DNA of 64,000 bases from Cyanidioschyzon merolae (GCA_000091205.1 AP006495.2); one strand, 5' to 3'. Positions 31,177 through 61,012 are shown, numbered from the stretch's first letter. Translations and numbers: made by a program. The notes: generated by a model not told the origin, from the letters alone.

Positions 31177-31179
31177 TAC

Positions 31180-31870
31180 ATTTCAGTCGATCGTAAAAAC
31201 GTTCGGCGATCATAGAATGCAGATGAACACACACCCGCAGCCGCCTCCCAGCCTTTTGTGACCGGCTGACTGCTATCGGTTCCAGTTTCTCCCTGCACTC
31301 TTCGAGCCTGAGAGGCTGCTACACCAAGTTAAATCGCGTCAGCTTCTTGAGACTTGTTTTCAGCACCACATATCTTCTGATATTAATGGCAGCATTGAAG
31401 TCGTTGTTTACGAAATCCAATCGTTTCATGCCTCTGAATAAACGCACCAATGCAAGGAGTGCAAGAACTCGTGCGCTCGTTGCCACTAGAGTCTCGCGAT
31501 TGTACCGTCAGAAAAGCACCTTTTCTCGCCTATCTGCTTTCCTGTCGTTCTTCGTCAGTTGCTCTTCTTCGCTTGATGGTCGACGAGATCAGGATTGTAT
31601 TCGTTTTGTATCCGGTACCCGGCACTGACAGCCGGCCAGAATCCGAGTCTTCCATTTCCATACTTTTCACTTGGATTTTGTAGTTCTGCAGTTGGACGCA
31701 CTCGGAGCGCATCTGCTATAACCTGCGAAAAAGCATTTCGTGATACGCACCTGACGGCGGAATACCATTGCGGTGAAAGACAAGAAGGTAGACACGTCGG
31801 TTGTTCATCGCCACATCGCCCGATGATACGCAGCGTCTGCGCATCGCATCGTCCTATTTTGTCCATTTAC
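31180..31870 (-). mobile_element. Copy (a) of a dispersed degenerate element family with a decayed ORF. It starts within about 15 bp of the inner end of inverted repeat copy A
   Basis: Nucleotide homology of about 70-75% to 42370-42875 (opposite orientation) and 60192-61012. Minus-strand translation ..ARVLALLALVRLFRGMKRLDFVNNDFNAAINIRRYVVLKTSLKKLTRFNLV* is colinear with the ORF relics in the other copies. Confidence 0.6.
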
Positions 31871-32253
31871 GTATACGATTGTTCCTAGTCGCCATGTAGA
31901 CACGTTGTCCACATGCATCCCATCTTATACAACAACTTCCACGTGCCCTGGATCCCTAGTGTCTCTCGATCCCGGCGAGCGTACGCCTCCGCGGGCGCAT
32001 TGACAGCAAGATTCCCGCGCATCCTCCAATTCGAGCTATCCGTACGAGGCTTCTTCGGCGTATGCCGCGTGATTAGCGTATGGACGAGAACGCGTTGAGA
32101 CTCACCGAGCTTGCGCCATGAAAAGACTTACTGTTGCACGATCGCGGCTGCTACAGCGCAACGCAGGAATGTGCGCTTGCGAGCGTGCACGTCCGCGAAC
32201 GCTGAGCGTAGCACGCGCTGGCACCTAAGGCCTCAGTTTTCGAGAACGCTCGC

Positions 32254-35200
32254 TCAGCGGAAACAGATATGCTTTTCTGCGGCCGTCACTGTACCTTGGG
32301 CTTGCTCTGGAAAAACGGTTACGATGCCGCAACCGCATGCCACGAGCGCAGAGCAAGTTGGCACGAGCGTGAGCAGCGCGGGATCACCGACGCCCACCAG
32401 TAAACTACGTGTTGTCGTCACCGATGCACTGATCACACCACGTTCCGCAGTTAGCTCGAGCCGTAACTCGTGACAGCGGAGCCAACGGTCAGTAGACCAC
32501 GTCCACAGCTCCGCGTATAGATGAAAGAGCTCGTCAGCAGCGTGAACTAGCTGAACGCGACGGAGCTGCACGCCCACGAGTGCGCCGCTATGACGTCCGA
32601 TGCGCTCACTACTCCAATGGCAAGCCTGGTTCGCCAGATTGCATAGATGAAACCGGAAGTGCTGATCATCGCCACCGGCAACCAAGAGTAACCAGTCATG
32701 AGACTGGAGTCGGAACCAGTGGCCGTCCACTGCGTTCACCGCTGCGGCAAGGAAAGCCGACTGCTCCCAGCACGGTTCGAACGTCGCTGGATCCGCGAGT
32801 GGAGCGTTCCCAGCGTCGAGCGTGCCGCGTCTCGCTCTGAGTTCAGCTGTGTGCCAGTCATGCGGCCAGACGTATAGTGCAACACTGCCACCAGTGTCGC
32901 CGGCGAAAACGTACGCCGTACCTCGGATGCTACAGAGCGCTCGCGGGTAGGCGTAGGCTTGGCGTGGACGCACGGCTACCAGCGTCATCGTCGTGTACCA
33001 GTTTCGATCGGGGGAGCGTTGCTCAAACCGCTCTGTTTTGGCCCTAATGCCCGCAGGATGCCTGGCGTCGACATGCGGCTGGACCTGCAGTCGGTAAAGC
33101 GAGAGCGTACCATCGCTACGACCACAAAGCAACCAAGCCGTGAGCAGCTTGGGCTCGGTACGCTGCTCCGCAACTGCCAGTGTCGTCTGCGTCGCGTCCA
33201 GATGAGCGCCGTGCTGTCTATCGGTAGAAGACGCAGCTCCGAGCACCACAGCAGTCACGCGCGCTAACGACTCATCACTCGGTCGACATAGACTCGCGGC
33301 AAACGGTGCTCGACTGCGGGAGCGAATATACCGTGCAAGATGATTCAGGCCAGCAGCGGAAACCCGCCAGATGGCGAGGGTATCGCTACCACCACCACTG
33401 ACCAGCAGATACGCTTCAGCGTCCTGTACTGCGTCCATGGGAGTAGCAAGCGCTGCTCGGTCAGCTTCGAAATGGGGCCAAGGCAATGCGGCCAGCGTCA
33501 GTACCCCCGAAAAGTGGACCGCACTCCCTGAAGCGACGCGTTCCCAACTCGCTGCGGAGAACAGGCCTCCTTTGCTGAGACGCTGCACCTGCCACTGATA
33601 GAGATCCAGATTGGTATCCTCGGAGGCGGTTGCTATCCAGTACATGAGAGTTTCCCCTGCATGAGAGGCATATTCCCGGGTCGCTCGTGAGTGTTGCGGT
33701 ACACCCGCGACCTGTTCTCGTTGTTGTTGTGGCTGCTGCTGCTGCTGCTGCTGCTGCTGCCTTTGTTCCTTTTGTTCCAGTCGCTTTTGCCAATGCTGCG
33801 ATACCCGACTACCAGTTTCAGGTTCAAGCATCCGAGCATCCACATCGAGAGCGCACTGGCCGGACACCCGCAACACCACGAGGCCTTGGATGCGCATGCC
33901 GCTTCCTTGGAGACGTAGCCGCTGCGGCAGATACCAATAACAACGACAACAACCACCATCAGGTGACTGGAGGATGCGCTCGTACAGGTAAACGCTGCCC
34001 GCTTTCCAAAAGCCAAAACCAATCACGCGTCCGACTGCAGGTACATTGCGTTCGTAGAGCGTATGCGGTCGACGCCAACCTCCACACGGCACAAGAAACA
34101 ACGGCTGTGCGGTATCTAGGCGCCATATCCCGGCATACTGGCCCCGAAATCCCGACGCAAACAGCATCCGGGGACTTGCTGGCACCCGTGGATCACCGGG
34201 TTCCGCACACTCTGCCAGCTCCCAGAGGCAATCGCCCTGTTCGCATTCGGATGGACATTTTTCACGACTGCACTGGACAAGGCGAAGCCTAGAAGCGTCC
34301 GTTCCATATTCCAGCGCAAAGCGCGTAAAGGTCCCATCCATTGAAAGCAGACAGAGCATCGATGCGAGCGCCTGTGGCTTGCTGGAGCGAGCGCCATCGC
34401 CCGCTACCCCAGTTGGTGCGATGCTAGAGACGCGGTCGTCATGTGGTCGCACCAGTTGAATACACCCAAGTTCTGCACATGCTTCTGCACTTGACGACAA
34501 CCCGGGATGTAGGCGCACGTGACCGGAGCGATGACCTATCAGCAGGGCGATCACTGCTGCCGGTGAATGCAGTGCTGCGTCCTTTGGCGTGTTGCACGCT
34601 GCCCCTGTCAAGTTCGCAAAAAAATGGATACAAGACGGTTGCTGGACAATACCACGTGGTGCCGGAACCCGCGCAATAACGTGTGGTGCTGTTGGTGCCC
34701 GTTCGCGAGGCAGCAGCCGCTGCTCCAGCAACGACGCGATATCGAATACCAGCACGAGTCCGTCCGCAAAGGCGGCACCGAGGAGGCGATCCTGCCAGAG
34801 CTCCACCAGGGTTACGGGATGTGCCTCAGGGCGTGCGTTCCAGCATACCTGGTGCTGCAGCAGATGCCCAGATCTCGCATCCGAAGCGTTCATATGATCC
34901 AAATCCAGGCACAACGCTAAAATGGTGCTCTGGCGATGACTTGATCCCAGGAAGAGCCAGGGCCGACTCTTGGCCGCTGCGATACAGGCTGGCATGAAGT
35001 CCACGCTGTGGTCTCCGTGGAGCACCTCCGTCCACTTGAGTGCTTCCAGTTGCAGGGCGAGTACCCTTCTGGCGCTGGTGCTGATGCAGAGTAGTTGCGG
35101 GTTTGCCAAAACTGCCATAGCGCGAGCGTGCTCACGAACAGAGGGTCGTGCTGCTGCGCTGAGCGGCGGTAGCGGTGGTGCAGCAACCAAACCCTCCGGC

Positions 35201-36924
35201 CAAAAATGGAGCTGTTGACGAACCGATGCCTCCGCAGTCGTCGAGGTCAAGTTCGCCTCAGCGCTCCCGCGACCTGGGCATGCAGGATTTTCTGCAGCTG
35301 CGCGCTGCACGATTGTGGCCGGAAGTGCCGCTTCTCGCGGCCAGGGCACGGTATGGATGCTCACGGATCCATCTGCGCCGCCACTATAGAGCTTGAGCAA
35401 AGGCCATGGTCCAGCGACCGCATTTCGTGTCGAGAGAGCGGCTAGTGCGAGGTCCAGGCACCAGCAGTTGCGTTGTCGATGCCCTCGCCAGCAGTGCAGA
35501 CAGCAGTTGCGCTGCGCATCCCAGAGTCGCACAGTATCGTCTTCACCGACGCTGGCGACCATTAAATGGAGCTTTGGTGGCGACGCTTCCGACGCTGGAC
35601 AGGTGTAGGCTCGCACTGCCCAGGGACGGGCCTGGTGCCCCCGAAGGAGTGCGATTCGTTCGAGCCCAGCCACTTGGACTGCTTCAGGTGTCGAGCTGGC
35701 ACCGCATTCGCCTACACCAATGAACACAGGATCGACTGCTTGTACCGGGGTGCACGTTGTGCTCCCTGACAGGCCATTTGTAGCAACATCACACTGGACG
35801 CGAAAGCACTGTACGGTACGATCATCGCCACATGAGCACAACCAGAGCGTGTTGAGCGCTTCCGGACCAGTCCCGTTGGATAGGGAACCAGCGGGGATGC
35901 TGTCCCTGCGAATTGTGCCATTCGAAGCGGTAAGGAATGGTCTTGCCCAAACAACGCCGTAGATCGGCCCTCGATGTGCCTGATAACGTCGGCAGGATAG
36001 CGAGGATCGCTTCGGCTCGAAAACAGGCACGCTGAAGGAAGCCTCTCGCGTCAGAAACGTCGGGTTCTGCTGTGATGCCAGCGCTTGCACCAGAATAGAG
36101 CCATCCGCCGTACCGAACGCTACCAATGACGCAGTCGGTGAAAAGGCAGCAGACCAGTAACAAGCTCGCTCGAGACTACAGCAAGTCCTGATGTGGTGAA
36201 TCCGAGCGTCATTTGAACACGTTGTCGCCCTTAGGGCTAGGACACGTCCGTCCGCAAGCGCCAGGTAGAGTCGCAGACTGGCGGTATCGTTGGACTCTCG
36301 CTTCTCAGCAACGCGATGATGATGTGTTGCGTTTCTGTCCACGCTCGCAGGACAACCTGCTCCCGCAGCGGGTTCTCGTGTTCGTGATACGGACGAGGCG
36401 GAACGTGGCGACGCCTCTGCCGCCAAAGCAGGCTCTTCAACGACCCCACCTGGAGCGCTCCAGAGCTGTGGTTCGGAGACTGCGAGGATCCAAGCGTCAG
36501 CGGCATAGGTGATGCAGCGAACGGGCAGCTGTGCGTCATCGCATGGCCAGTGACACAGACAGAGGTGCCGTCCTCCAAATACCACAAGCCACTGGGACGC
36601 AGCAGTACCAGCTGCTGGTGGTGCTGGATCTAGTGATGAAGTCTCGATGCCGTGGATGAATTGACCTGCGGGCAGACAAGCAACGGTGCCCAGTAGACAC
36701 AATGGATCCTCGCGCCAAAGCTCCAGTAGGTGTCCAACGCCGACTCCAAGAATCCACTCCGTTTCTGTCGAGGTTCCTAAGCCGCACCTATTCAACCGTT
36801 TGAGTGCCGTAACAGGCCCTAGCTGTTGTTGTTGTTGCTGCTGCTGCTGCTGCTGCTGAGGTGCCATAGTCACCAGCAAAGGCCGCACTGCCGTCGTAAA
36901 GCTTCTCGCATCCCTGCTTGCCAC
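32254..36924 (-). CDS. Large WD40-repeat protein (1556 aa) with two polyglutamine tracts
   Basis: WD-like repeats (GHQARPWAVRAY...GEDDTVRLWD; SGGADGSVSIH; GSADGTLSLY). N-terminal Q12 tract and an internal Q-rich tract encoded by (CAG)n. Confidence 0.75.
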   Translation of the reverse strand: MASRDARSFTTAVRPLLVTMAPQQQQQQQQQQQQLGPVTALKRLNRCGLGTSTETEWILGVGVGHLLELWREDPLCLLGTVACLPAGQFIHGIETSSLDPAPPAAGTAASQWLVVFGGRHLCLCHWPCDDAQLPVRCITYAADAWILAVSEPQLWSAPGGVVEEPALAAEASPRSASSVSRTREPAAGAGCPASVDRNATHHHRVAEKRESNDTASLRLYLALADGRVLALRATTCSNDARIHHIRTCCSLERACYWSAAFSPTASLVAFGTADGSILVQALASQQNPTFLTREASFSVPVFEPKRSSLSCRRYQAHRGPIYGVVWARPFLTASNGTIRRDSIPAGSLSNGTGPEALNTLWLCSCGDDRTVQCFRVQCDVATNGLSGSTTCTPVQAVDPVFIGVGECGASSTPEAVQVAGLERIALLRGHQARPWAVRAYTCPASEASPPKLHLMVASVGEDDTVRLWDAQRNCCLHCWRGHRQRNCWCLDLALAALSTRNAVAGPWPLLKLYSGGADGSVSIHTVPWPREAALPATIVQRAAAENPACPGRGSAEANLTSTTAEASVRQQLHFWPEGLVAAPPLPPLSAAARPSVREHARAMAVLANPQLLCISTSARRVLALQLEALKWTEVLHGDHSVDFMPACIAAAKSRPWLFLGSSHRQSTILALCLDLDHMNASDARSGHLLQHQVCWNARPEAHPVTLVELWQDRLLGAAFADGLVLVFDIASLLEQRLLPRERAPTAPHVIARVPAPRGIVQQPSCIHFFANLTGAACNTPKDAALHSPAAVIALLIGHRSGHVRLHPGLSSSAEACAELGCIQLVRPHDDRVSSIAPTGVAGDGARSSKPQALASMLCLLSMDGTFTRFALEYGTDASRLRLVQCSREKCPSECEQGDCLWELAECAEPGDPRVPASPRMLFASGFRGQYAGIWRLDTAQPLFLVPCGGWRRPHTLYERNVPAVGRVIGFGFWKAGSVYLYERILQSPDGGCCRCYWYLPQRLRLQGSGMRIQGLVVLRVSGQCALDVDARMLEPETGSRVSQHWQKRLEQKEQRQQQQQQQQQPQQQREQVAGVPQHSRATREYASHAGETLMYWIATASEDTNLDLYQWQVQRLSKGGLFSAASWERVASGSAVHFSGVLTLAALPWPHFEADRAALATPMDAVQDAEAYLLVSGGGSDTLAIWRVSAAGLNHLARYIRSRSRAPFAASLCRPSDESLARVTAVVLGAASSTDRQHGAHLDATQTTLAVAEQRTEPKLLTAWLLCGRSDGTLSLYRLQVQPHVDARHPAGIRAKTERFEQRSPDRNWYTTMTLVAVRPRQAYAYPRALCSIRGTAYVFAGDTGGSVALYVWPHDWHTAELRARRGTLDAGNAPLADPATFEPCWEQSAFLAAAVNAVDGHWFRLQSHDWLLLVAGGDDQHFRFHLCNLANQACHWSSERIGRHSGALVGVQLRRVQLVHAADELFHLYAELWTWSTDRWLRCHELRLELTAERGVISASVTTTRSLLVGVGDPALLTLVPTCSALVACGCGIVTVFPEQAQGTVTAAEKHICFR

Positions 36925-37106
36925 CGGATCAAGGAAGCACGGGACTTATAAAATGGAGCCACCGATCGTTCCGAAAGCTGTTTTCAAGCGTGCTCTCCAG
37001 TCCTATAACGTACACCTTGTTCTGAGGCGAGCGCAAGCCCTCACTAGTCTACAACCGTACACCCATCTCCGAAACGAAATCTTCTCGATGAGGCGCTACC
37101 GATGAT

Positions 37107-37122
37107 CCCCCCCCCCCCCCCC
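37107..37122. repeat. Poly(C)16 homopolymer in the spacer between the WD40 gene start and the SWIB gene end
   Basis: gatgatcccccccccccccccccagatacc. Confidence 0.8.
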
Positions 37123-37438
37123 AGATACCAGAGGTTCCCTGCGTCCTCTTTATGGCTGGTAGCACTACTCATGTACCACACTGCCACCGATAGAGCACTT
37201 CTTGCGGTACCTGTCGCTTCCTTGCATGATCCTGGATGCTTCCGCATAACCTCTACGGATACCATTTCGTGTTCATAGACGCATATGATCCGAGTGGCGC
37301 TCGAGCATGCGGCTACCAATCCTCGACATAGTCTCAGTGCATGAGCAGGTTTTAGCGGATAATGGTTTAAGGCGCGTGCCATAACCAAGAGCGACGACAA
37401 CATACTATTCAAGACTCGGTAAAGCGGCCCGAGCGGCC

Positions 37439-38644
37439 TCAACTTTCCGAGTCCAGTTCCGACTGAGAACCCCTACCGACCTCATCGTTGCGTTGAAGAG
37501 GTTGCAGATGTTTCCCCAGAAAGCGGTTCATCCCAAAAGCGGTGACTCGCGTCTCACCGTCGAAGACTCGCTGAAGTTTGGCATCGCATTGGATAACCTT
37601 GCGATCATTGGGATCCTGCAACTGCTGCTTCTTGATGTACTCCCAGAGGAGGCGCACCACTTCGCACCGGCTGAGGATGCGCGCGCCTCCACAGATGTCG
37701 CTCAGCGCCTCTGAGACCTGCAGCGGTTGCGCCAGTCCCGATGCTTTCCTCTTTCCCGTTGAGGGCGTCGACGAGCGGTGGCTATCCTGCGTCGACTGGG
37801 AACCACCACTCAATGGCGAAAATGATGCTCCCAGCGCTTTCTCTTTGAGATGCTGACGTCCAGCACGAACGCGTGCTCGTTTGGCTGGGATTTTCCGTCG
37901 CTGGGTGAGTCCCTTGGCTTCCCATTCCTGACGCCAGGCTTGGATTCGAGCTTGCTCCTCTGGTGCGCATTGACTTTCTTTTCGGATGTGCTGCTCGAGC
38001 AGTTTGTTCATTTCAAAGAATGATACCGAGTCGCGATCGGGAAAGAGCTTGGCAAGCGCCGCATCCGGACGAAAGCGCATCCCCTGGCTTGGATCTCGCA
38101 GTTCGTGTTCGCGAACATAAGCATGTAGCTGTTTTGCGATCCAGGGCCGCGGAAGAATATCCTGTCCGCCGCAGACTGCCGCGAGTTCGGGAGCAAGCAT
38201 GACCGGGGCCATGAGTCCAGTAAAGCGCAGCGGCGACTCGCGATAAGTGGCAGTGTCGTCGTCGTTCTCTTGCGAGCGCTTCGCTTTGTTTGATCGTCGT
38301 TTCCTGGTCGCGGACTCGATAACGCCTGGTGGACCTTCTGGGTCTGCGGTACGGTTCACCGAGGCGTTCGGCGCTGTAGCGTTGCCTCCACTGATAGGCT
38401 GCTCGCCGCTTGCGCCGCTCGCCGTTTGCATGCGCTCGCGCAGACACCGAAGAACGTGTTCTTTTATCCAGTTTTTTCGTGACGAAAAGTCGTAGCCACC
38501 GAACTTGAACGACAAATCCTGCAGTATGGAGCGCAGAGAGGCCTGCTTTATATCGGCGTGCCGCACCATCCATTCTAGCACTGGAAGCACAGCCTCGTTG
38601 GACGGACTCGCGTCGACGTGACGTTGTCCTGGAGAAGCACTCAT
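37439..38644 (-). CDS. DEK C-terminal domain plus two SWIB/MDM2 domains (UAF30/BAF60-related chromatin protein), 401 aa
   Basis: DEK-C-like N-terminus (AVLPVLEWMVRHADIKQASLRSILQDLSFKFGGYDF). SWIB 1 is LAAVCGGQDILPRPWIAKQLHAYVREHELRDPSQGMRFRPDAALAKLF. SWIB 2 is LSDICGGARILSRCEVVRLLWEYIKKQQLQDPNDRKVIQCDAKLQRVF. Confidence 0.8.
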   Translation of the reverse strand: MSASPGQRHVDASPSNEAVLPVLEWMVRHADIKQASLRSILQDLSFKFGGYDFSSRKNWIKEHVLRCLRERMQTASGASGEQPISGGNATAPNASVNRTADPEGPPGVIESATRKRRSNKAKRSQENDDDTATYRESPLRFTGLMAPVMLAPELAAVCGGQDILPRPWIAKQLHAYVREHELRDPSQGMRFRPDAALAKLFPDRDSVSFFEMNKLLEQHIRKESQCAPEEQARIQAWRQEWEAKGLTQRRKIPAKRARVRAGRQHLKEKALGASFSPLSGGSQSTQDSHRSSTPSTGKRKASGLAQPLQVSEALSDICGGARILSRCEVVRLLWEYIKKQQLQDPNDRKVIQCDAKLQRVFDGETRVTAFGMNRFLGKHLQPLQRNDEVGRGSQSELDSES

Positions 38645-39077
38645 GAGCAGAACGTGTTCAAGGGATTAGAGCGCCACAGCTCTGTGAGTCTGTGAAAGCT
38701 TCGGCTGCACTGGCGTGTGCCGTTCGTGCGCCAACAAAGCTCGTAGCTCGTCGTGCGCACCACAACCAGGTAGCGTTTTACTCGCTTCCCCGGGCAGCGC
38801 GTAGAGCACTGCTAGTCGCCAGACCAACAGACGCCTCACAAACCCTGAGCACTGGCAGTGCCTTGGCACACACAGTGCTGCTGTCGGAAGTTGAGGCAGC
38901 AAAAGAACCCACAAAGCAGGCGGTATGAACGAAACGGCCAGTTGCGTTTAGCGCGCGCTAGCTAGGGCTCAGCCCAGCCCAGGCCAAGCCAGGCCAGCTC
39001 CAGGAATGCCTGTTTTTGGCCATCTGGCATCCGCTGCGCTGCGCAATCCGAAACGGCTACGCATGATCGATACGACT

Positions 39078-39370
39078 GCCCGGGGCAAGTATACAAAGAG
39101 GTATTCGCGCTGGAGGGAATGCTCTCTCTCTCTCTCTACATATATATAACGGTTCCGAGTAAGCGTGATGCGCTCGGAAACAGTGTAGGCTCGGATTGTT
39201 TTGGGGCGATACGATCGTTGATGCGCATGAAGATGTGCAAGACTGGTTTATCGATCGATACCACTGCCTGGGGCAAGTACGAAGAGGTATTCGCGCTGGA
39301 GGGAATGCACTCTCTGTCTCTCTCCATATATTTATACATAAAACGTTTCCGAGTGGGCGCGATGCGCTTA
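39078..39370. repeat. Two copies of a ~105-bp motif spaced about 185 bp apart, each with (CT)n and (AT)n microsatellite cores
   Basis: gcctggggcaagta(t/c)(a/g)aagaggtattcgcgctggagggaatgc(ac)tctct(c/g)tctctctc...atatat...aacg(g/t)ttccgagt occurs at about 39078 and about 39262. Confidence 0.7.
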
Positions 39371-40200
39371 CTTGAATCGCACACGTGCGACGCTCCCGCA
39401 GGCTCTTCGATAAATGCACGGCACATCTTATGGTGTTGTTCGTGTACAGTTCAGACGCAGGGGTAGCTAAGAGGCTTACCCTGCTCACTCGCTCTATCTA
39501 CATTCGTGACTTTGACCTAGTCGACAGAACTAGCGGTGGAACGTGCGGCTTGAAACGTCTCCTGTCGTGGCAAGAGTACCAGCCAGGTTACCCGCGCACC
39601 ATAAGCGGAAACAGAGCACACCGTTCTCTATCCATTGTATGGAATGCAAGGGCGTTTTTACCGGCATTCCGGCGCAGAGGGATGCCGTCGAAACAACCGC
39701 ATGAAGAATCTTTCAAAACTATGGCGGTATGGCTGCGGAATCCCTACCAATTCGTAGTGACATGGTCTCATGCGATTCGCGACATGATCCCAGAGACACC
39801 GCACGGGAAAACTCAGCCATACAGGTGAAGGTTTGACTTTAGCATACGGTATGTATCTGGTCGAGAGATTGGTTGTTTCCATACCTAATTGTAAAACATA
39901 TAACATGCCGCCCGGTTCAGCGATGTGCTGCAAAGCGTACCCAAGTCATCGGGTCACAATTCATTCCAGGTTCCTTATCCTCCGTCAGAACACTGGAAAG
40001 CGCTCCAACAATGGATTCCATATCCGAACATGTTGTTCTCGGGAGAATGTCAGAAATTTGTATGCTCGTTTGCTCCCGTACACGGAAAAACCCGCCTTCC
40101 ATTCTCAAGTGCGGAGTGTCTCTCAAAAAAGCTCCGCTTCCGGGACGCGATCGATACGACGCAGCCGAGAGGCTGTCGCTTCGCATGCTGAGCATCGCAT

Positions 40201-41097
40201 TCATCTGATATCTTTGAAGGCTGCTTGTGGGCTGAGTAACTCCCATGGATACACAATCCATTCCGAACCAGCAACCTCTTTCCCGTAGAAATCAGGTGCT
40301 TCGCCCGAGCCAAAACGATTATTTTCCGGTTTGTAATGAAGGACTGCCACATGTGCGAGCGCTGCTCTCGCTCGTTCACATCGCAAGCGAACCGCTCGTG
40401 CCGTTCGACCCGAGTCGAAAACGTCGTCCACAATCAGGACCCGTTTTCCTTCGATGAGTTTCATGTCGGGAAACATGAGCGCCCGCGGTTCCTGCAGTCC
40501 GTAAAAGCGTTCTCCCGAGTCATCATAGAAAATAACAGTTGCAGTCAAAATGTTTCGATGCTCGAAGCGTTGTGCTAACAAGGTACAGGGAATGAGTCCA
40601 CCGCGTGTAATTCCAAGCAGCAGGTCGTAACAGACTCTTCCCCGACCGGGATGTGTGCTCAAGTTTTCCCCGCCAGTCGGTACTGACTTTTCCATCACTC
40701 GTGTCGCAAGGGCGTTCGCCAGCTCCTCAACTTCTGCCCAGGTCACAATCGTATACTTTCCCCGAAAGTTCGCCATTCCCGCTGCCGTATCACCGTGCGC
40801 AGGGCCCGATGCAGGTCTCACGCACGCAAAGACACCACGAAGCACTTTTCGTTCCGCATCGCTCCAAAAACTCCGCCTCCAGAAAGATCTTTCTGAGATA
40901 CATCTTTGAGCCGGCACCGGATACCGGACTCGGTGACCCGCTGCAGGTCGCCTGTCGTACCCGTGGACGCCCTTTCCGCGTGCCACAGCAGCACGAGCAT
41001 GCCAGCACAATGATGCACAGTCAGCAGTGACCGAAGCGAAAGCAGCAGCCGGAGAAACCTTCCCTCTCAAGACTGCCAAAAGCTGATCCGACGCAGT

Positions 41098-41128
<31 letters not shown>

Positions 41129-41229
41129 AAGTCGGGAACCTTCCGCTCCATAACATTGGCGTACCGGTTGCCTACCCGTGTGCCGCGTCTACAGTCCACA
41201 GACGCGCACATCTTTCGCTGTGCGTGCAC
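40201..41229 (-). CDS. Type I phosphoribosyltransferase, xanthine-guanine PRT (gpt)-like, with an N-terminal extension that contains a Q11 tract
   Basis: PRPP-binding motif KRVLIVDDVFDSGRTARAV and C-terminal WIVYPWELL (compare the gpt WIEQPW motif). (CAG)n at 41096-41130. Confidence 0.7.
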
Positions 41230-42369
41230 GGCGCTTCGAGTGCTTCTACAAAGTACAATATATAAAAGTTTCTAGTGATAACCTAACCGGTATACTCGAG
41301 AGATGCGTCGACACACCAACGACTTTGGCGCGGGCGGCACGACACAAGCGCTTCAGACTGGAGCATTCTTCGATGACGCCGCCAACACCACCGTCGCAGA
41401 GCTTGCGTTGGTTACTTGACAGGAACAAGAGCTGTTGCAAGAGTCACTCCAGTGACTATTGCTATGGATTGGGGGAAATATAAGTTCCTGTGAAAGGGTT
41501 CATATTTGTGCGTTGCTAAGCGGCGGCGTTTATCCAACGAGTCCGGTTAGGTGCACCGAACCATCAACGTGAAGCGGGCGGGACGATCTTTCAAGCAACG
41601 CTCATGTTGCGGCACTGCCTGAAGAACCGAGTCCGCTTCTGCACCGGCGCTTCGTGCGATGAAAGGCATCGGGTAATTTCTTGATTGCCGGATCACAAGC
41701 TCAAAGTGAAACGCTCATAACGCCTAACGCCACCCTATTAGGCTCAGTTCACCGGTATCAGCTCCCGAGCGCGATGTACAGCAACGAACTTCTGTGTTGC
41801 GCTCGGCTTGCGAGCGAGTGCGCACCGAGAGCCTCGTGCTCGTCATCGCCGTTGACATGAGCGTCATCAAGCCACCAGTACTGCAACTATCCTTCCGAGG
41901 AGAATCGCATGGATCACATAGCGCTCCGCAGACAGTGTATGAAATAAGATGAAGGAACAAGCGCATCCGCAGGCAGTGTGCGTCGTCCGCTGCCGTACCG
42001 AGTAGCATGCACGCGCTCCAGTAATGCCCAGTACGATGGCAGTGAACTGAACAGTCCCCATGTTTGGCGTCTGCATCGAGCACTTCATGACAGCGTCGAA
42101 GCACACGAACTTGACCTGCCGATTATTCAAGGCTCCGCTGAAACCAGAAGCCACTTCCACGCGCAACGAAGACGCACCAACGTCGAGCGCAAAAACAACC
42201 GCCTGCGATACATGTCTGGCCTTGCATGTGAACACTCAGTGCGGAGAGACTTGTTCTCATGAGGACTTTCACCTCAATTGTTTTGCATTATCGGGTGCAT
42301 GTCATCAAATGCTCTTTCGCGGTTCATAGCAGATGCGTTCAACTTGCGTTCATTTGAAGAAACAAAAGT

Positions 42370-42875
42370 CCTAGGCTGAGGTATGGACATGGAGGTCGGG
42401 GATCCTGCAGGGCTGGTGTCCCCGGATGTTTGCGAAAAAACGACAGAAAAAATCCTCTTCCCTCCGGCCGTCGACAGAAGACGAGCAAGTGGCGACGACG
42501 AAGAAGAACAGGGCAGATGGGCGAAAAATGGTGTTTGCCCCACGAGACGATGCCGCAACTGTATTGGAAAAGAGGGCAGGAGTTCGAGGACTCCTTGCAT
42601 GGGTGCGCTCCACCAGATGCAATACATGCAAGGAGTTCCTGAACCGGGCCTTCAGCGCCGCCATCAATATCAGATGATGTGTGGTGCTGAAGACGAGACC
42701 CGAGGGGCTGAAGCGATCCAACTTTGTAGTGCAGTCTCTGATGCTCGAAGCGTACAAAGAGAAGCTGGAATCGATAGTAGACGCCCTGTCGACAAAGACT
42801 GGGACGTGTCTCCGGGTGGGTATTCATTTACCCCACATGTTCGTTGGGCAGTTTTTGTTTCACTGATCAGGTGTA
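42370..42875 (+). mobile_element. Copy (b) of the dispersed element family, truncated, with an in-frame TGA inside the ORF relic. Its end overlaps the stop codon of the 42867..45515 gene
   Basis: ..CKEFLNRAFSAAINIR*CVVLKTRPEGLKRSNFVVQSLMLEAYKEKLESIV is homologous to copies (a) and (c). The terminal roughly 120 bp aligns to the starts of (a) and (c). Confidence 0.6.
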
Positions 42876-50040: not shown

Positions 50041-50513
50041 CCGCCGCAGTTACATCGCAACGCATCATGCGTTCCCGATCATCGATCCGCATACATGGGG
50101 TCTGCCTCGTACACGCCCTGACCAGCTACGAGTTGACTGCACGAAGAACCATTCAGGTCGGTACCACAGAGCAGCCATTTTCCCAAGTTCCGCTGGAACC
50201 TCCCTTTACCGCACTCAAAATGCCGAAGCTCCTGTTTTGTCTCGCTGACGCATTGGAACGGAAAGCGCTTGTACGCATCTGGTGCATCAATCATCGTTCA
50301 TCGCGGCTGATGCTACCAAGTCACTTTCCTAAACCGGGGCTGACCGCACTCAAAAGCTACCTTACCTGTGAGATTCTGCAGAAATGCATGGAACGGGACC
50401 AGATCACGGCTCTGTTGCCGTCCCTACACATATACGATAGCTGACGCTTTGCTTGTCACTGACAAAGGTTGCGCGTCATCATCTCCCATTCCGCACTCGT
50501 CAAGCAGCGAAAA

Positions 50514-51275: not shown

Positions 51276-51580
51276 GTGCCGCTTTTGTTCTCATCTGACA
51301 ACCAGAGAGCGGTCCTGCTGGCGACGAGCACCGACTTGCAATGCAGTGCAGCCAGCAACGTGTTGAAAGAGCACGAACGCGGGCATCAAAGCATCGCAGC
51401 CCAGTCTTGAGCTGCGAGTCGCATGACGCGACGCGGATGATAGACGCCATCGAGAAGATACCAAGGAAGCGAGGGTACGAGTTGTTTCGTCGATATGTTG
51501 AGAGGCATCGCTGTCGTTCGAGGAAGACGTCCGTTCGCCATGTAGACGGTACCAATTTCAGGTATGTATAGACGCATAGC

Positions 51581-53117
51581 AGACATACATGGAACGGGCC
51601 CACAGCGCTCAATCGGGCGTACACACGAAATGCGGAGCATCTCGTATTTGTCATGAACAAATGACCCGGTAGGCCTCTTCCGACACAGCGTACTTGCTCT
51701 CGTTCGCACCTCGGGATTTTTGGACACGCCAGTCTCTCTGGACCCCGCAGTTCCACGGTCTCCCGTCGAAGGATGCTCGTGGCAGCGCCCGAGTCCCGAT
51801 CTCACAGCTGCCGGCTGTTGTCGATGCAGTTCATCCACCGGCGAGACTTGCAATCCATGCTTCGCTTGCCAGCTTCGTCTTCTTCGAATACAGCGCCGAT
51901 GCGCTTTGCGCAGCGGTCGCACTCGACTGCTGTTGTCGGGTATCCCACATGTCCAGCGCACACCCGTCACCGAGTGCAGCGCTGTGCGGCGTGAAGGACT
52001 CCTCCAGTGCTCGGTGCACGCCCCTGACGAGTACAGAAGGCGTCGCTCGATGCCGTGCTCCGTTGCCGCGCCCGGTACCGTACACTGTCGTCACGAACTT
52101 GTTCAGGGCGATCCCCTCGGCGAGTACGCTGTCCGCGGCAGACGCAAGCGAAGGCTTCTGCATTACGCAGAGGATCTGTGAAACGCGGTGCTGTCCGTGA
52201 TAGAGCACGGAGCAGACGGAAGCTTCACACTCGAGAAGTCGTCGACATACTCCGAGCCGTTTCCGATCCCTGGTTGCAAAGCGGTGACACAGGCTCCGCT
52301 GGAAGCGAGTGCCGGGAGAGCTGGTATCCGAGTCCGAGACCGAGCACCCATGGACGGGCAGGAGCCGAGCACCCGTGGACGGGCAGGAGCCGAGCACCCA
52401 TGGACGGGCAGGAGCCGAGCACCCATGGACGGGCAGGAGCCGAGCACCCGTGGACGGGCAGGAGCCGAGCACCCGTGGACGGGCAGGAGCCGAGCACCCA
52501 TGGACGGGCAGGAGCCGAGCACCCATGGACGTCCGTGCCCTGTGGGGTACCGTGCTTGCGTCGAACGCCGTCTCAGCGGTGTTAGCAAGGAGCCGGGCGA
52601 TATGTCTCCTCGGCCGAGTTCGACGCTCTGACTTGCGAAGTACGGTGAGCGATCGGCTCGAGCTTGTGAGCAAGTCGTTAACGGACGGCGTCGACGAACG
52701 TTCCGAAAGCGTCCAGGTGCTTGAGGTGGCGCGCCCACTGGGTTGCCTCGGAATAGCAAGATCGAAAACCTGAAGATTGGATACTCGGAGCGGGCTGCAA
52801 GTGAAGATAGAAGAAGAGAGGCGTCTAGCGCGTATGCATACAACGGTAGTATCGATTCGTTTACGATGCCTTGTTCGCGGGTGTCCCGAATCGTCTCGAT
52901 TCTGGTGACGTAACGAGTTGCAGCGGCACATCGTTGAACGTGTCGCTCCGCGAGAAAGAAGAACCACCGACCTAGAATCCTGAGAGTGTATACGAATCCG
53001 TAAGCATTTTATTGGTGCTCCATGAAAGTCAGCGCTTTGCATCTGAACAAGTTCAGAGGGAAATCTAAATGCAGGAACAGGGTGTGCAGTTCTTTTGTAG
53101 ACTTATATCTGACGCGG
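51581..53117. repeat. Direct repeat copy 1, about 1.54 kb, carrying an internal 25-bp VNTR (7 full plus 1 partial units)
   Basis: About 99% identical to 58614-60185 in the same orientation. Identical ORF artefacts appear in both copies (for example MTGVRWTCG...). Confidence 0.9.
52342..52537. repeat. 25-bp VNTR inside direct repeat copy 1, 7 full units plus 1 truncated unit
   Basis: Unit GAGCACCC(A/G)TGGACGGGCAGGAGCC; the pattern of the A/G variant across units is A G A A G G A A. Confidence 0.9.
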
Positions 53118-53718
53118 GTGTCTGCAACTGCCAACGCAGGCATTTACGTCCGAAGCTGTGGGTCTCAATATGGTTTTCCAGTAGCGATGACTGCCAGGGT
53201 TGGTTTGCGGTGCAAACCAAGGTTCCTGAGCTTAACTTGAATGCTTCTAGCGAGCGCACTGGTTTATTGTTGCTCTCGCGAGAGGCTGGCGCGCCTTGTA
53301 TGAACCTCAAACGCTCTATGTTTCCGACCAACGGCACTTGTCTCAGAACCTGCTGATTACCTCGGCACCGCTTCCCGTACACAAGCCTTCAAAGCACATT
53401 ATTAAAGGATTCATGATAGATGCTTTTCCAGGAAACTGTCGTGCGGTTGTCTACCCGATGTTGGAGCAATAGCTAGTGCCCCCATTGTATGAGCGTGAAG
53501 CGCGCTCAGCAGGTTCCTATGCGTTGCGCGTCACCTTTCCTTGCCTGTATGATAGCGCCGCCCCTACATATGTTCCTACGCTGGGTGCACGGAGTATTCT
53601 ATATGACCGAGCGAGCGTGGAGCCAAAGCGCAATTGGCAATCGAAGATGTTCAGCATAGCGAGTACCCGAAGTCGCCATACAGTGACCTGTCTATAGAAA
53701 ACACAACTTGAAGGACAG

Positions 53719-56035: not shown

Positions 56036-57784
56036 ATGAGTACAAGTCAAGTCATCGACTACATCATTCGCAAGCTCATTGAAGCCTACGAAAACGACGA
56101 GGCCGTTTCGCTGGATCGGTTAAAACTAGAAGCTGCAAAGCATTTCGGTGTTAATGGAGTACCAAAGCTCATGGACATAGTGGCTGCTGTGCCAGACGAA
56201 TACCGCGACGTACTCGTTCCACAGCTGCGCGTCAAGCCGGTACGCTCGTCGTCGGGAATCATCATCGTTGCCGTGATGTCGAAGCCGCACCGTTGCCCTC
56301 ACATCTACACGACCGGCAGCGTCTGTATTTACTGTCCAGGGGGTCCCGACTCGTCTTTCCCGTACTCTGCTCAGTCCTATACTGGGTTAGAGCCGACGAG
56401 TATGCGAGCGATTAGGGCGCGTTACGATCCCTACCTTCAGGTACGCTCTAGGATCGATCAGTTGCAATCGCTTGGTCACGCAGCTGACAAAGTGGAGTTT
56501 ATCATTCAAGGCGGTACGTTCATGAGTTTGCCTGCAGACTACCGGGATTGGTTTATTCGTAACCTTCACGACGCGCTCTCGGGACACGCGTCCATGAGTG
56601 TTGCCGAGGCGGTCCGCTACGGCGAGCAGAGCGCCAGATACAAGTGCATAGGGCTCACCATAGAGACTCGTCCAGACTTTTGCCAACGAACACATCTAGA
56701 CGCGATGCTGCAATACGGTTGCACCCGTCTAGAAATAGGGGTGCAGAGCGTCTACGAGGATATCGCGAGACTGACCAATCGGGGTCACACGGTTGAGGCC
56801 GTCATTCGCTGCTTCCAGCTCGCCAAGGATGCCGGTTACAAAGTTGTCGCCCACCTGATGCCAAACCTCCCGGATATGGATCGAGAGCGTGATGTCGAGT
56901 GCTTCCGGGAGTTCTTCGAGAACCCGGCCTTTCGCGCCGATGGTCTGAAAATATATCCGACGCTGATCCTGGCAAACACGGGCCTCTATGAGCTGTGGCG
57001 AGCGGGAAAATATCGCAGTATGCCACCTCCTGAGCTTGTTGATCACGTTGCGGAGCTCTTGTCTCTAGTACCACCATGGGTACGAGTCTACCGCGTCCAG
57101 CGTGATATTCCGATGCCGCTGGTCACCAGCGGTGTACAGTTTGGCAACCTTCGGGAACTGGTGTTAGCACGAATGCGCGACCTGGGACTACGTTGTCGAG
57201 ACGTGCGGACTCGTGAAGTTGGTATCCGGGAAATCCATGAAGCAGTTCGACCGCAATCTATTGAACTTGTTCGGCGCGATTATGTGGCGAATGGTAGCTG
57301 GGAGACCTTCTTGGCCTACGAAGATCCGGTACGGGATATTTTGGTAGCACTGCTTCGACTGCGGCGCCTCAGCAAAGAGACAACGCATCGGATGGAACTG
57401 CGTATTGAAGACACAGCTGCCGGGGATGATTCGAGCAATAGTGGCGTTGGGCAAGGCACCGGTTGCTCTGTGGTGCGCGAGCTCCACGTCTACGGGACAG
57501 TGGTGCCCGTTCACGAACGAGACCCGACTCGATTTCAGCATCGGGGCTTCGGTACGCTCCTCATGGAAGAAGCGGAGCGGATCGCTCGCGAAGAGCATCG
57601 CAGCTGCAAGCTCGCGGTTATCTCTGGCATTGGCACTCGAAACTATTATCGCAAACTGGGTTACACACTCGAAGGGCCCTATATGGTGAAGTACTTGGCA
57701 GCGGGTACTGCGAAGGTCTCGCCCAGCGGTATGTCCAGTTGTATGGGCGAACAGATACGCGCAGATATGGCTGTTTCCGTGTAG
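56036..57784 (+). CDS. ELP3: Elongator complex protein 3 (radical-SAM domain plus GNAT acetyltransferase domain), 582 aa
   Basis: Highly conserved Elp3 blocks: [15 protein letters not shown]...[40 protein letters not shown], the radical-SAM core, and the C-terminal GNAT ([20 protein letters not shown]...LGY). Confidence 0.92.
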
Positions 57785-58613
57785 GTTCCTCTATCTGCTG
57801 GCTGTGGAGCGTGGAGATAACCCCAGGCCATGCCAGACGACAGCTTCCGTTCACCAAATCAGCGTGGATGCTGGGAAGGCTCCACGCTACATCTACGGTC
57901 AAGCGGTGCACCTTGGATGCATCCAAGGTGGTATTAGACAATAGTATCCCATCATTAGCTCCGAGCATATCCAGGGAAGCTTTGAGCGCAGCATGCGAAG
58001 CCCAGCTCCTGCGTTGTAAAGGCGCTGCTCGCTAGAAACATTTTGTTTCCAGCTTCTCATGCAGATACAGGTGAAACTGGTTTTCTAAATGGTGTCATCC
58101 ATCGGCAGTGAGTGACTGAAGCACACATGACTCCTGTGCCGACTGGACGAGGTCAAGCGCTCGGTACCTATTGAGCTGGGGACGACGCATCTGCCTGGAT
58201 TCATTTTCTGCAGAACCGCGATGCTGTGATGAGGCGTTCCCATCGAGACAAGGACATCGTGCACGGCAGGCGCCTAGCTTCTTCTGCTTCCAATATAGCG
58301 CATCTCCGCACATTGCATCGCTGGAATATAAACTGCTCATCTAGAATTTATGCGGCAAAACTTGCAACGCCCAGTTCTCCGCGTCAGAACATGTACGTTT
58401 TGCGTGCCTCATCGCAACGCTCACGAAAAGTACCATGTTCAGCAGTCGCTGCAGAGGCCTGCCCGCAGTGCGCCCTCCGCCCTAGTTCGGTAAGTGGCTG
58501 CATTCGAGCGAGTCGTCATCTGTGCCGAAACCGCATGAAGGATGCGCAGACCCTACGAGAAGTTTTTCTATCCAATGGAACGCATGAAAACATGCGCCCT
58601 CGACCCCCATATC

Positions 58614-60185
58614 AGACATACATGGAACGGGCCCACAGCGCTCAATCGGGCGTACACACGAAATGCGGAGCATCTCGTATTTGTCATGAACAAATGACCC
58701 GGTAGGCCTCTTCCGACACAGCGTACTTGCTCTCGTTCGCACCTCGGGATTTTTGGACACGCCAGTCTCTCTGGACCCCGCAGTTCCACGGTCTCCCGTC
58801 GAAGGATGCTCGTGGCAGCGCCCGAGTCCCGATCTCACAGCTGCCGGCTGTTGTCGATGCAGTTCATCCACAGGCGAGACTTGCAATCCATGCTTCGCTT
58901 GCCAGCTTCGTCTTCTTCGAATACAGCGCCGATGCGCTTTGCGCAGCGGTCGCACTCGACTGCTGTTGACGGGTACGCCACATGTCCAGCGCACACCCGT
59001 CACCGAGTGCAGCGCTGTGCGGCGTGAAGGACTCCTCCAGTGCTCGGTGCACGCCCCTGACGAGTACAGAAGGCGTCGCTCGATGCCGTGCTCCGTTGCC
59101 GCGCCCGGTACCGTACACTGTCGTCACGAACTTGTTCAGGGCGATCCCCTCGGCGAGTACGCTGTCCGCGGCAGACGCAAGCGAAGGCTTCTGCATTACG
59201 CAGAGGATCTGTGAAACGCGGTGCTGTCCGTGATAGAGCACGGAGCAGACGGAAGCTTCACACTCGAGAAGTCGTCGACATACTCCGAGCCGTTTCCGAT
59301 CCCTGGTTGCAAAGCGGTGACACAGGCTCCGCTGGAAGCGAGTGCCGGGAGAGCTGGTATCCGAGTCCGAGACCGAGCACCCATGGACGGGCAGGAGCCG
59401 AGCACCCGTGGACGGGCAGGAGCCGAGCACCCGTGGACGGGCAGGAGCCGAGCACCCGTGGACGGGCAGGAGCCGAGCACCCGTGGACGGGCAGGAGCCG
59501 AGCACCCGTGGACGGGCAGGAGCCGAGCACCCATGGACGGGCAGGAGCCGAGCACCCATGGACGGGCAGGAGCCGAGCACCCCTGGACGTCCGTGCCCTG
59601 TGGGGTACCGTGCTTGCGTCGAACGCCGTCTCAGCGGTGTTAGCAAGGAGCCGGGCGATATGTCTCCTCGGCCGAGTTCGACGCTCTGACTTGCGAAGTA
59701 CGGTGAGCGATCGGCTCGAGCTTGTGAGCAAGTCGTTAACGGACGGCGTCGACGAACGTTCCGAAAGCGTCCAGGTGCTTGAGGTGGCGCGCCCACTGGG
59801 TTGCCTCGGAATAGCAAGGTCGAAAACCTGAAGATTGGATACTCGGAGCGGGCTGCAAGTGAAGATAGAAGAAGAGAGGCGTCTAGCGCGTATGCATACA
59901 ACGGTAGTATCGATTCGTTTACGATGCCTTGTTCGCGGGTGTCCCGAATCGTCTCGATTCTGGTGACGTAACGAGTTGCAGCGGCACATCGTTGAACGTG
60001 TCGCTCCGCGAGAAAGAAGAACCACCGACCTAGAATCCTGAGAGTGTATACGAATCCGTAAGCATTTTATTGGTGCTCCATGAAAGTCAGCGCTTTGCAT
60101 CTGAACAAGTTCAGAGGGAAATCTAAATGCAGGAACAGGGTGTGCAGTTCTTTTGTAGACTTATATCTGACGCGGATGCAGGACT
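58614..60185. repeat. Direct repeat copy 2, about 1.57 kb, carrying the 25-bp VNTR with 8 full plus 1 partial units
   Basis: See copy 1. Confidence 0.9.
59365..59587. repeat. 25-bp VNTR inside direct repeat copy 2, 8 full units plus 1 truncated unit (one unit more than copy 1)
   Basis: Variant pattern across units is A G G G G G A A (C). Confidence 0.9.
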
Positions 60186-60191
60186 GTGTGA

Positions 60192-61012
60192 ACACTGAGC
60201 AATACAAAAAAACGTTCAACGGCCATGGAGGGTATACAGACATCCTCCCTCGCAGACGCCGCCCAGCCTTCTTCGACTGGCTCCCCTGCTATCGGCTTCA
60301 GTTTCTCCTTGTACATTTCGTGTTGGAAAAGTTGCCCCACGAAGTTCGCACGTGTCAGCTTCCCCGGTCTCGTCTTCAGCACCACTCAACACCTGATATC
60401 CTTGACGGCGTTGAAGTCTCGGTTCACGAACTCCACGCGTTTTAGTCTCTCGTGGAGCTCATTCAGGCGAGGCTTCTTCGAACTCGCGCCCCCTGCGGCA
60501 TGTGCTGCTCTATCAGCTGTCCGAGGTTTTCCAACGCCGAACCGCTCCGTTGCCTTCTCTCAACATCAGCCTTCGGAAGTGTAAACCCCAGATCAGCCTG
60601 TGTTTTGCTCGTTCGGAACACAGCTATCGGTACCGCGACCAAACGCTGCGAGCTCTCCTTGTACGCGCGCGCCAAAAGAACCAATATTCTCCCTTTTTGG
60701 GGCAAGCAGTGCCCTGACCAGTTTCCCGCTAAAAGCTTTTGACCCTCATCCTCGTTTAAGGTGCTCAGCTATCTCAAGAAATCGACACTTGTACGCTTCT
60801 TCCTTTCGTACAAACACATACGGTGGCGGGGTGGGGGCCTGTCCGCCGATGCAGACCGCCTTCCACAGCTCGTCGGTATGAGTGTTTTGAACTTTCCTGT
60901 ACTCACGAACAGCTTCAAACTCCGCTCCTCGAAACGTGACTTTCTTCATCGCATCCCGGTACTTATTTAGTGCCGGTTGTTCAGTCGTAACTTGTTTCGA
61001 CGGCTCCGTCAT
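60192..61012 (-). mobile_element. Copy (c) of the dispersed element family, the longest copy. It starts within about 10-20 bp of the end of direct repeat copy 2. Its ORF relics are frameshifted, including an intact 88-aa ORF at 60746..61012
   Basis: Minus-strand ORFs MTEPSKQVTTEQPALNKYRDAMKKVTFRGAEFEAVREYRKV... / ..RILVLLARAYKESSQRLVAVP.. / MVLKTRPGKLTRANFVGQLFQHEMYKEKLKPI.. are colinear with (a) and (b). The 5' 150 bp aligns to the ends of (a) and (b). Confidence 0.6.

Follow-up and report, generated by a model that had tools for sequence, protein, structure and literature searches.

The 64,000-nt stretch of Cyanidioschyzon merolae DNA analyzed here (GCA_000091205.1, AP006495.2; hereafter the window) has a G+C content of ~55% and carries eukaryotic nuclear genes with long unbroken open reading frames (ORFs), whose products include a plastid-type sigma factor, a photolyase, a GH31 glycosidase, ELP3, Sgf11, and a SWIB protein. 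Two of the encoded proteins, ELP3 (56036-57784) and the SWIB protein (37439-38644), have exactly the sequences of the C. merolae 10D entries BAM80969.1 and BAM80964.1, respectively, which identifies the window as nuclear DNA of this strain. Dispersed among the genes are three related segments, termed copies a, b, and c, which most probably are dead copies of a transposon family encoding Fanzor1 and whose 3' ends meet the edge of a large inverted repeat (a), the stop codon of a gene (b), and the edge of a direct repeat (c). The interval from 28 to 64 kb contains at least seven pieces of three kinds that are derived from transposable elements (TEs), and the apparent repeat boundaries are junctions between such pieces. 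For the comparison with wild strains, we used metagenome contigs from independent assemblies (JGI, ENA), whose loci are labelled with L numbers.

Copy a (31181-31775, minus strand) is a short, non-autonomous element of ~600 bp, copy b (42270-42870, plus strand) is an element of the same length class and subfamily, and copy c (60192-64000 and beyond, minus strand) is a decayed near-full-length element with a total length of ~4.2 kb. Self-BLAST gave identities of 69.3% over 570 nt (a-b), 69.6% over 289 nt (b-c), and 71.4% over 192 nt (a-c). A previous sequence-only reading of the window had recognized the three homologous segments, though with a somewhat higher identity (70-75%), and had drawn extents that require correction: copy a extends to ~31775 and does not reach 31870, b begins at ~42270 and not at 42370, and c, assigned 820 bp, runs past 64000. 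Its inventory of the family also lacked the relics in the inverted-repeat arms described below and an additional fragment at 4877-5506 (plus strand), which is homologous to an internal segment of c (61388-62060).

Identity and anatomy of the element family

The colinear ORF relic noticed before, ..FVN(R/N)(D/A)F(N/S)AA(I/V)..I(R)..VVLKT.., is present in a, b, and c alike and is interrupted by in-frame stops in each of them. The motif FVNRDFNAAINI of the relic represents RuvC-III, and the relic peptide FVN(R/N)DFNAAINIRRC resembles the RuvC-III of TnpB and Fanzor proteins. By themselves, the relic translations had no match in Pfam or NCBIfam. A profile of the three relics retrieved 34 short metagenome proteins, some of which reach upstream to IDEFRTS (RuvC-II). 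At locus L005, GADPGNTN (RuvC-I), a homologue of an 88-aa open frame found in copy c, IDEFRTS, and NRDFNAAINI follow each other in that order in a copy broken by frameshifts. With a reconstructed 304-aa C-terminal half, a word-index search found 274 relatives of up to 516 aa; phmmer with the same half against the PDB had SpuFz1 as its top match (E=0.28), and a profile of 18 close relatives had no match in the PDB. An exhaustive profile search returned 1506 representative clusters, many of them of 580-740 aa.

The consensus of a 33-sequence alignment reads RVxGxDPGRxNI ... VDEFRTT ... FVNRDLNAAxNIRRC, in which the D/E/D motifs of a split RuvC stand in order (GxDPG, VDEFRTT, NRDLNAAxNI); CxxC pairs are not evident in this consensus, and the zinc-finger cysteines appear degenerate. 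Searched against the PDB, the diverse profile of these 33 proteins matched the Fanzor1 structures of Parasitella parasitica Fz1 (9cf0, E=5.7e-18), Spizellomyces punctatus SpuFz1 (8gkh, E=1.6e-11), and Guillardia theta GtFz1 (9cer, E=2.4e-5), and nothing else of note. Family proteins aligned by tblastn to the window copies with E values of ~1e-39 (c), ~4e-16 (b), and ~1e-14 (a). The Pfam family PF07282 (Cas12f1-like_TNB) was found below threshold at the right position in two full-length members (E=0.0012-0.0023) and in L005 (E=0.17).

Since the 33-protein profile matches solved Fanzor1 structures and tblastn ties the window copies to this family, we consider it well founded to regard a, b, and c as dead members of a transposon family that encodes Fanzor1, which, judged by the published description, is CMe-1A or a sister subfamily of it. 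CMe-1A was described as a Fanzor1 family of the C. merolae genome with ~150 copies, ~80% identical to a consensus of ~3 kb, without terminal inverted repeats (TIRs), with undeterminable target-site duplications (TSDs), and of unknown classification; a related short element of C. merolae, TE-N2_CMe, shares the 5' 635 bp of CMe-1A (Bao & Jurka 2013, PMC3627910). The element family has therefore been known from this genome since 2013, and the earlier suggestion of an uncharacterized lineage, whose protein matches no recognizable family, had to be given up. The family is a multi-copy one: at least six pieces of it lie in the window, and 318 stretches were confirmed in metagenome contigs. Pfam scans of 19 of the long ORFs of the window, a non-exhaustive set, detected no transposase domain, and no TnpA-like transposase was seen.

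Copies a and b consist of the 5' terminal bases, the last ~90 Fanzor codons, and the 3' non-coding tail; the ~130 nt with which they begin have their homologue at 63317-63435 of c. The 5' similarity of a, b, L021, and L063 stops at one point, CACC(G/T)CAAT.. (CACCGCAATGG.. in a), which is preceded by GTCTTT (as in a), GACTTT, GTCATG, or GTCCTT. Because the independent copies L021 and L063 share this 5' stop point, a and b are internally deleted short derivatives with both termini rather than random 5' truncations. Two derivatives of ~1.5 kb were seen in L005 (13529-15010 and 8118-~9400), in which a ~1-kb 5' part is joined straight to a ~500-bp 3' part; with these, the family has a graded series of internal deletions. 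Neither TIRs nor TSDs are visible in the copies, as in the 2013 description: the 5' CACCGCAATGG.. and the 3' ..GACTGAAATGTA of a, like the corresponding ends of b, are not inverted copies of each other, and the flanks are unduplicated. Classification as a miniature inverted-repeat transposable element, that is, a derivative of a TIR transposon, was rejected for the same reasons.

On the minus strand, residues ~31 to ~690 of family proteins of 630-700 aa align colinearly with copy c between 63433 and 60320, Fanzor homology as a whole being colinear from 60244 to 63433, and DNA similarity of c to other copies reaches 63976. In L085, a wild contig that is 99% identical, c continues for ~390 nt beyond the end of the window to the shared 5' terminus TCTT(T/C)CA(A/G)C... 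The length of ~4.2 kb results from extra internal segments. The 88-aa open frame (60746-61012, minus strand), which exists as had been reported, aligns to residues 270-342 of P0065 and 222-300 of P0041, and the corresponding region of a related copy aligns to residues 837-942 of SpuFz1. Judging from these alignments, it is a surviving internal piece of the Fanzor1 ORF between RuvC-I and RuvC-II and not a separate gene. An internal module of ~650 bp (61388-62060 and 4877-5506; at ~1300-2070 in many loci) was observed in both orientations relative to the Fanzor ORF and may be invertible or independently inserted.

All three copies are decaying, in agreement with their earlier classification as a decaying TE family. 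The RuvC-III relics are FVNNDFNAAINI in a (31379-31414, minus strand), FLNRAFSAAINI in b (42636-42671, plus strand), and FVNRDFNAVKDI in c (60395-60430, minus strand). In b, RuvC-III reads NRAFSAA, with the catalytic Asp replaced by Ala; in c, RuvC-II reads IPIAVFRTS, with the catalytic Glu lost. There are two in-frame stops in a, one in b, and one in c (..DIRC*VVLK..), along with several frame changes in c. Copies a and b are without RuvC-I and RuvC-II and have lost more than 80% of the protein.

The 3' end has a common layout in all copies: ..CGTTTTT, 8-12 nt, a CTGA-like motif, and 3-6 nt more; that of a is ..CGTTTTTACGATCGACTGAAATGTA|TGG. The 3' block is the part kept in every copy. It holds the C-terminus of Fanzor with RuvC-III, followed after the stop codon by a conserved non-coding tail of ~100-170 nt, for which single-sequence folds gave an 11-12-bp terminal hairpin in the high-copy subfamily. 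In the case of SpuFz1, the cut lies at a distance of 16-21 nt from the target-adjacent motif (TAM), and the guide corresponds to the 3'-terminal flank (PMC10432273). By analogy, the 3' block may comprise the right end of the element together with an omega-RNA scaffold, the adjacent flank serving as guide, which would explain why every short derivative has retained it.

Element 3' ends at repeat edges and the 16.3-kb segment

Copy a ends with ..GACTGAAATGTA at ~31181, and the inverted repeat follows with the next bases, TGGTTTTTGAAG, at 31176-31180, which leaves a gap of 0-5 nt. Copy c ends with ..GCTCAGTGT at ~60192-60195, 14-16 nt away from the edge of direct-repeat copy 2 (60178). At copy b, the terminal CACTGATCAG motif includes the TGA (42867-42869) of a convergent gene on the minus strand that encodes an 882-aa protein with an NT-C2 domain (42867-45515), so that the stop codon lies within the terminal bases of the element. 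The contacts of a and c with the repeat edges and the overlap of b with the stop codon had thus been seen correctly, although the element was thought to start there: the abutting ends of a, b, and c are 3' ends. All three copies lie in intergenic space at gene 3' ends.

By a rough estimate for 64 kb, the probability that at least 2 of 8 repeat ends come to lie no farther than 20 nt from three termini by chance is ~1e-4; the estimate assumes uniform placement and overstates the significance if insertions cluster. The junctions recur in independent metagenome assemblies with 98.6-99.7% identity. Six of them (L085-L090) span the junction of c with direct-repeat copy 2, L091, L093, and L096 span b together with the stop codon, and L096 and L102 span the junction of a with the inverted-repeat arm. 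Because independent assemblies span them, the junctions are not assembly artefacts. The breakpoints coincide with the 3' ends of the elements; this placement is real, and chance is not the obvious account of it.

The inverted repeat itself was confirmed by self-BLAST as 28650-31176 (arm A, plus strand) and 49991-47465 (arm B, minus strand) with 98.5% identity. Arm A, whose sequence we term X, contains a divergent, internally deleted Fanzor1 relic, with an N-terminal part (family residues ~125-177) at 30176-30334 and the RuvC-II region (residues ~515-641) at 30516-30899, in which RuvC-II reads IPMDAFTT; arm B carries the same relic. The arm relic points to the inner boundary of the repeat and is therefore arranged tail-to-tail with copy a. 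We searched for a continuation of this relic past the arm-B boundary to a canonical 3' end, which was not significant in nhmmer and Smith-Waterman comparisons against shuffles, and the relatives L017 and L062 were of no help. Two Fanzor elements of different subfamilies were also seen tail-to-tail in L035 (~4480-4570), L036 (~4425-4515), and L042 (~500-600), with their 3' termini ~16-20 nt apart, which is the same layout as that of the arm relic and copy a. We considered that the arms might be an active TE and rejected this reading, because the protein collection has just one 90% cluster for the open frame of X and because, in L093 and L102, the sequence runs on without a break from the outer boundary into the GH31 flank. 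X is accordingly a duplicated segment of low copy number.

Between the arms lies a segment of 16.3 kb (31177-47464), which comprises copy a, the WD40, SWIB, and phosphoribosyltransferase genes, copy b, and the 882-aa gene. Wild contigs that are 98.6-99.3% identical to the window contain four arm junctions in two combinations. L102 (ENA) has the order GH31, X, a, WD40, as in 10D. In L093 (JGI), GH31 and X are followed by the spacer on the 47464 side and the 882-aa gene, and L096 (JGI) runs from the 882-aa gene through WD40 and a to X and the 49992 side. Since L102 joins the arms differently from L093 and L096, the 16.3-kb segment occurs in both orientations in wild samples, as a natural inversion polymorphism or flip-flop. 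The X copies adjacent to a (arm A, L096) share 12 sites against the copies adjacent to the spacer (arm B, L093), with 4 discordant sites. As the sharing of sites follows these neighborhoods, the sequences indicate that the inverted duplication predates the divergence of the sampled strains and that the junction of a with X is old. No contig with a single copy of X was recovered among the wild contigs.

Two further observations concern the arms and their surroundings. Just outside arm B, GTCTCTT, which resembles the GTCTTT-like motif directly 5' of family copies, is followed by TGGTTTTTGAAGCAGACCAT; of the 20 nt after GTCTCTT, 19 agree with the 3' flank of a (47455-47485 compared to 31155-31181). 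This site looks like a TAM plus target for an omega-RNA from a, the match to the motif including a 1-nt indel. In L096, the identity drops at ~1660 from ~99% to ~70%, at window position ~46976 and inside a relic of the family D introduced below, and the first 1.5 kb of the contig are unmatched in the window; this break is a further structural difference between strains, which possibly arose by recombination between D copies.

The direct repeat, likewise correctly reported, comprises copy 1 (51575-53120) and copy 2 (58608-60178), both on the plus strand and 97.8% identical in self-BLAST, the right end of copy 2 being the one that lies 14-16 nt from the 3' terminus of c. Old colinear relics of the same sequence are present at 5944-6568, 13864-14275, and 46900-47262, the last (plus strand) corresponding to the right part of the repeat and separated by ~200 nt from arm B at its inner end. 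Further pieces occur on both strands in at least eight other loci (L005, L034, L040, L051, L053, L057, L059, and L060). Because old relics are dispersed and the similarity among family members stops exactly at the repeat boundary at 53120, the most fitting interpretation of the direct repeat is that its units are two young members of a dispersed family of ~1.55 kb without Pfam domain, which we term D. The 403-aa frame of the direct repeat is unlikely to be a host gene, being Arg/Ser-rich and without Pfam hit and having related pieces dispersed on both strands. Three of the four right ends of D in the window lie near Fanzor-family sequence. Both young copies contain tandem repeats of ~100 bp (52340-52531 and 59373-59589, with self-BLAST offsets of 50 and 100 nt), and they differ by 25 bp in length. 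A search for extra weak copies of the element 3' end near 53121 and at 47262-47465 found none.

Elsewhere in the window, near-perfect tandem repeats of 97-98% identity lie at 1584-1951 and 18653-18872, with periods of ~93 bp (at least three copies) and ~109 bp (two copies). Direct paralogous segments at 17582-18090 and 19065-19574 have diverged to 66%. Since the right-hand segment is part of an ORF (18947-19867) that encodes a GPR1/FUN34/YaaH domain, the two may represent a pair of tandem genes. An exact-protein look-up gave no match for the X open frame, the 403-aa frame of the direct repeat, a 103-aa frame in copy a, a 253-aa frame to the right of arm B, and the GTG-started WD40 ORF.

Possible origins of the junctions

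The inverted duplication has one breakpoint at, or at most 5 nt from, the 3' terminus of a, and its two arms probably either allowed the inversion of the intervening 16.3 kb or arose together with it. We infer that the junctions may have been created by breaks or insertions at element 3' ends, either through the action of a transposase or nuclease or through end-specific insertion. Several courses of events are conceivable: a might have inserted in a copy of X at a GTCT(C)TT-like target, with subsequent loss of the other flank; X and D copies might have been inserted, or copied by templated repair, at breaks at the right ends of elements; or a single staggered-break or aberrant-transposition event might have inverted the interval and duplicated X, with flip-flop recombination between the arms occurring later. 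Template switching at element termini is a further possible source of the junctions.

The sequence-only reading had proposed that an uncharacterized transposon lineage inserts at a preferred target, which also nucleates duplication breakpoints. The copies are indeed TEs, a GTCTTT-like motif stands directly 5' of the first conserved base in family copies, and the bases outside arm B, GTCTCTT|TGGTTTTTG, resemble an empty target for a; the tail-to-tail 3' ends ~16-20 nt apart in the three loci mentioned above would also fit. However, the lineage is Fanzor1 and as such already characterized (PMC3627910), the motif match at arm B requires a 1-nt indel, and the GTCTTT-like motif is inseparable from the first bases of the element itself. 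Moreover, homology between the sequence 5' of a and that outside arm B does not go beyond those ~7 nt, and there is no such motif for copy c at direct-repeat copy 1. We regard a preferred target as a possible account, if on balance an unlikely one.

Adjacency might also have come about by chance, in a TE-rich and tolerant stretch of a compact genome in which insertions gather where they are harmless, including the 3' ends of genes. The number of TE pieces between 28 and 64 kb and the intergenic position of all three copies at gene 3' ends would agree with this. It would nevertheless call for a coincidence at the nucleotide level twice over, with the probability of ~1e-4 that holds under uniform placement, in addition to a stop codon in the last bases of b, and we hold this explanation to be unlikely.

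Alternatively, breaks could have been made at or near the right end of the element, by the putative transposase of the family or by Fanzor with an omega-RNA cutting 16-21 nt into a flank-like target, and in the course of repair, segments of kilobase length could have been captured or duplicated and the interval turned around. An inverted duplication around an invertible segment is a footprint of staggered breaks or aberrant transposition as known from alternative transposition of maize Ac/Ds and from inversion breakpoints in Drosophila. The young kilobase-long repeats end 0-5 and 14-16 nt from element 3' termini, where chance would place them with a probability of ~1e-4, a Fanzor 3' end lies ~16-20 nt from another one in L036, and SpuFz1, with the 3' flank as guide, cuts 16-21 nt from the TAM (PMC10432273). 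On the other hand, a, b, and c are dead, so that an active copy would have had to act in trans; at a donor site, it is the right end instead of a TAM that precedes the flank, and such elements normally avoid cutting themselves; and the distances are unequal in a sample of two to three. This explanation is thus rather improbable in its specific form. The wider proposition that Fanzor1 right ends are break hot spots in C. merolae, which seed kilobase-scale duplications, TE capture, and a still-segregating inversion, can at present be put forward with low confidence, as a speculative one.

A number of results weigh against our main reading of a, b, and c as Fanzor1 copies with end-precise junctions. 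The omega-RNA scaffold in the 3' block was not corroborated by RNAalifold, which detected no covariation; the terminal-hairpin model performed no better than shuffles, an alternative register scored equally, the fold z-scores were -2.0 (a), -0.6 (b), and -1.1 (c), and Rfam gave no match. The protein-level identity between copy c and the high-copy metagenome family amounts to no more than ~35-55%, and the X frame is confined to its single 90% cluster. The placement at repeat edges rests on three cases in one window. Contigs across the 2.5-kb repeat could in principle be mis-joined; at the 39 sites that differ between the 10D arms, alleles of the A and B types alternate many times along the wild copies, unlike in a single chimeric join, and these patterns argue against simple chimeric contigs.

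The earlier proposal that the inverted and direct repeats were made by ectopic homologous recombination between copies of the element fares poorly. In its favor, three of the four repeat units contain or adjoin Fanzor-family sequence, but the junctions lie at the terminal nucleotide or nucleotides of a and 14-16 nt outside c, not in the aligned bodies. With identities of ~70%, copies a, b, and c have diverged too far to recombine efficiently by homology. The arm relic, which is inverted relative to a, aligns to them at the protein level alone, without significant similarity of the DNA. Recombination between the 98.5% identical arms accounts for the flip, but not for the origin of the arms, and ectopic recombination between element copies is accordingly very improbable as the source of the repeats.

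Finally, a conserved host gene family under purifying selection, to which the open 88-aa frame of c and its identical copies in 12 contigs might point, is practically untenable, since these contigs represent the orthologous locus in wild strains and all three copies show the stops, frame changes, and losses of catalytic residues or of most of the protein described above.

Significance and comparison with known systems

Overall, our analysis replaces an unknown TE with an unknown protein by a Fanzor1 identity and a corrected anatomy. Of interest is that three 3' termini meet rearrangement junctions or a gene stop codon at the nucleotide level, and that wild C. merolae-like samples contain both orientations of a 16.3-kb segment with at least four genes, which is enclosed by inverted arms of 98.5% identity. 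The orientation polymorphism of this gene-bearing segment emerged as a modestly interesting by-product. C. merolae is genetically tractable and has a small, fully sequenced genome in which some Fanzor1 copies are reported to be intact, which makes it a good place to test for structural variation caused by Fanzor. If right ends were indeed break hot spots, they would provide a natural case of an RNA-guided or transposon-end nuclease shaping eukaryotic chromosomes.

The closest known elements are CMe-1A and TE-N2_CMe (PMC3627910), with which the window family has in common the genome, a Fanzor1 ORF, many diverged copies, the absence of TIRs and of recognizable TSDs, and the occurrence of short, non-autonomous relatives with a terminal part in common. 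Compared by description, the part that TE-N2_CMe has in common with CMe-1A is the 5' 635 bp, whereas what remains in a and b is mainly the 3' ~500 bp together with a short 5' terminal stretch, and CMe-1A measures ~3 kb in contrast to the ~4.2 kb of copy c with its extra internal segments. To SpuFz1 (8gkh), Parasitella Fz1 (9cf0), and GtFz1 (9cer) the family is linked by profile similarity across RuvC-I, RuvC-II, and RuvC-III (Saito et al. 2023, PMC10432273). Characterized Fanzor1 systems have an omega-RNA at the 3' end of the ORF, at the right end of the element, and take the guide from the flank, a layout that is only expected for the window copies; these differ in being pseudogenes, and the zinc-finger cysteines of their family are apparently degenerate.

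The window family further resembles the bacterial TnpB elements of the IS200/IS605 type and their short non-autonomous derivatives, the palindrome-associated transposable elements (PATEs), which likewise lack TIRs and TSDs, have asymmetric ends, encode a TnpB-type nuclease, and give rise to short derivatives that keep the ends. It differs from IS200/IS605 in that it is eukaryotic and nuclear and no TnpA-like transposase was seen with it, and its subterminal hairpin comes from single-sequence folds without covariation. With regard to inversions flanked by inverted duplications, the window differs in that the TE at the breakpoint is itself not duplicated and the ancestral single-copy arrangement was not recovered. 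Staggered breaks, flip-flop mediated by inverted repeats, and alternative transposition of Ac/Ds are known models for such inversions, and the window has the features in common with them that a 2.5-kb inverted duplication brackets a 16.3-kb segment present in both orientations and that one breakpoint lies at a TE terminus.

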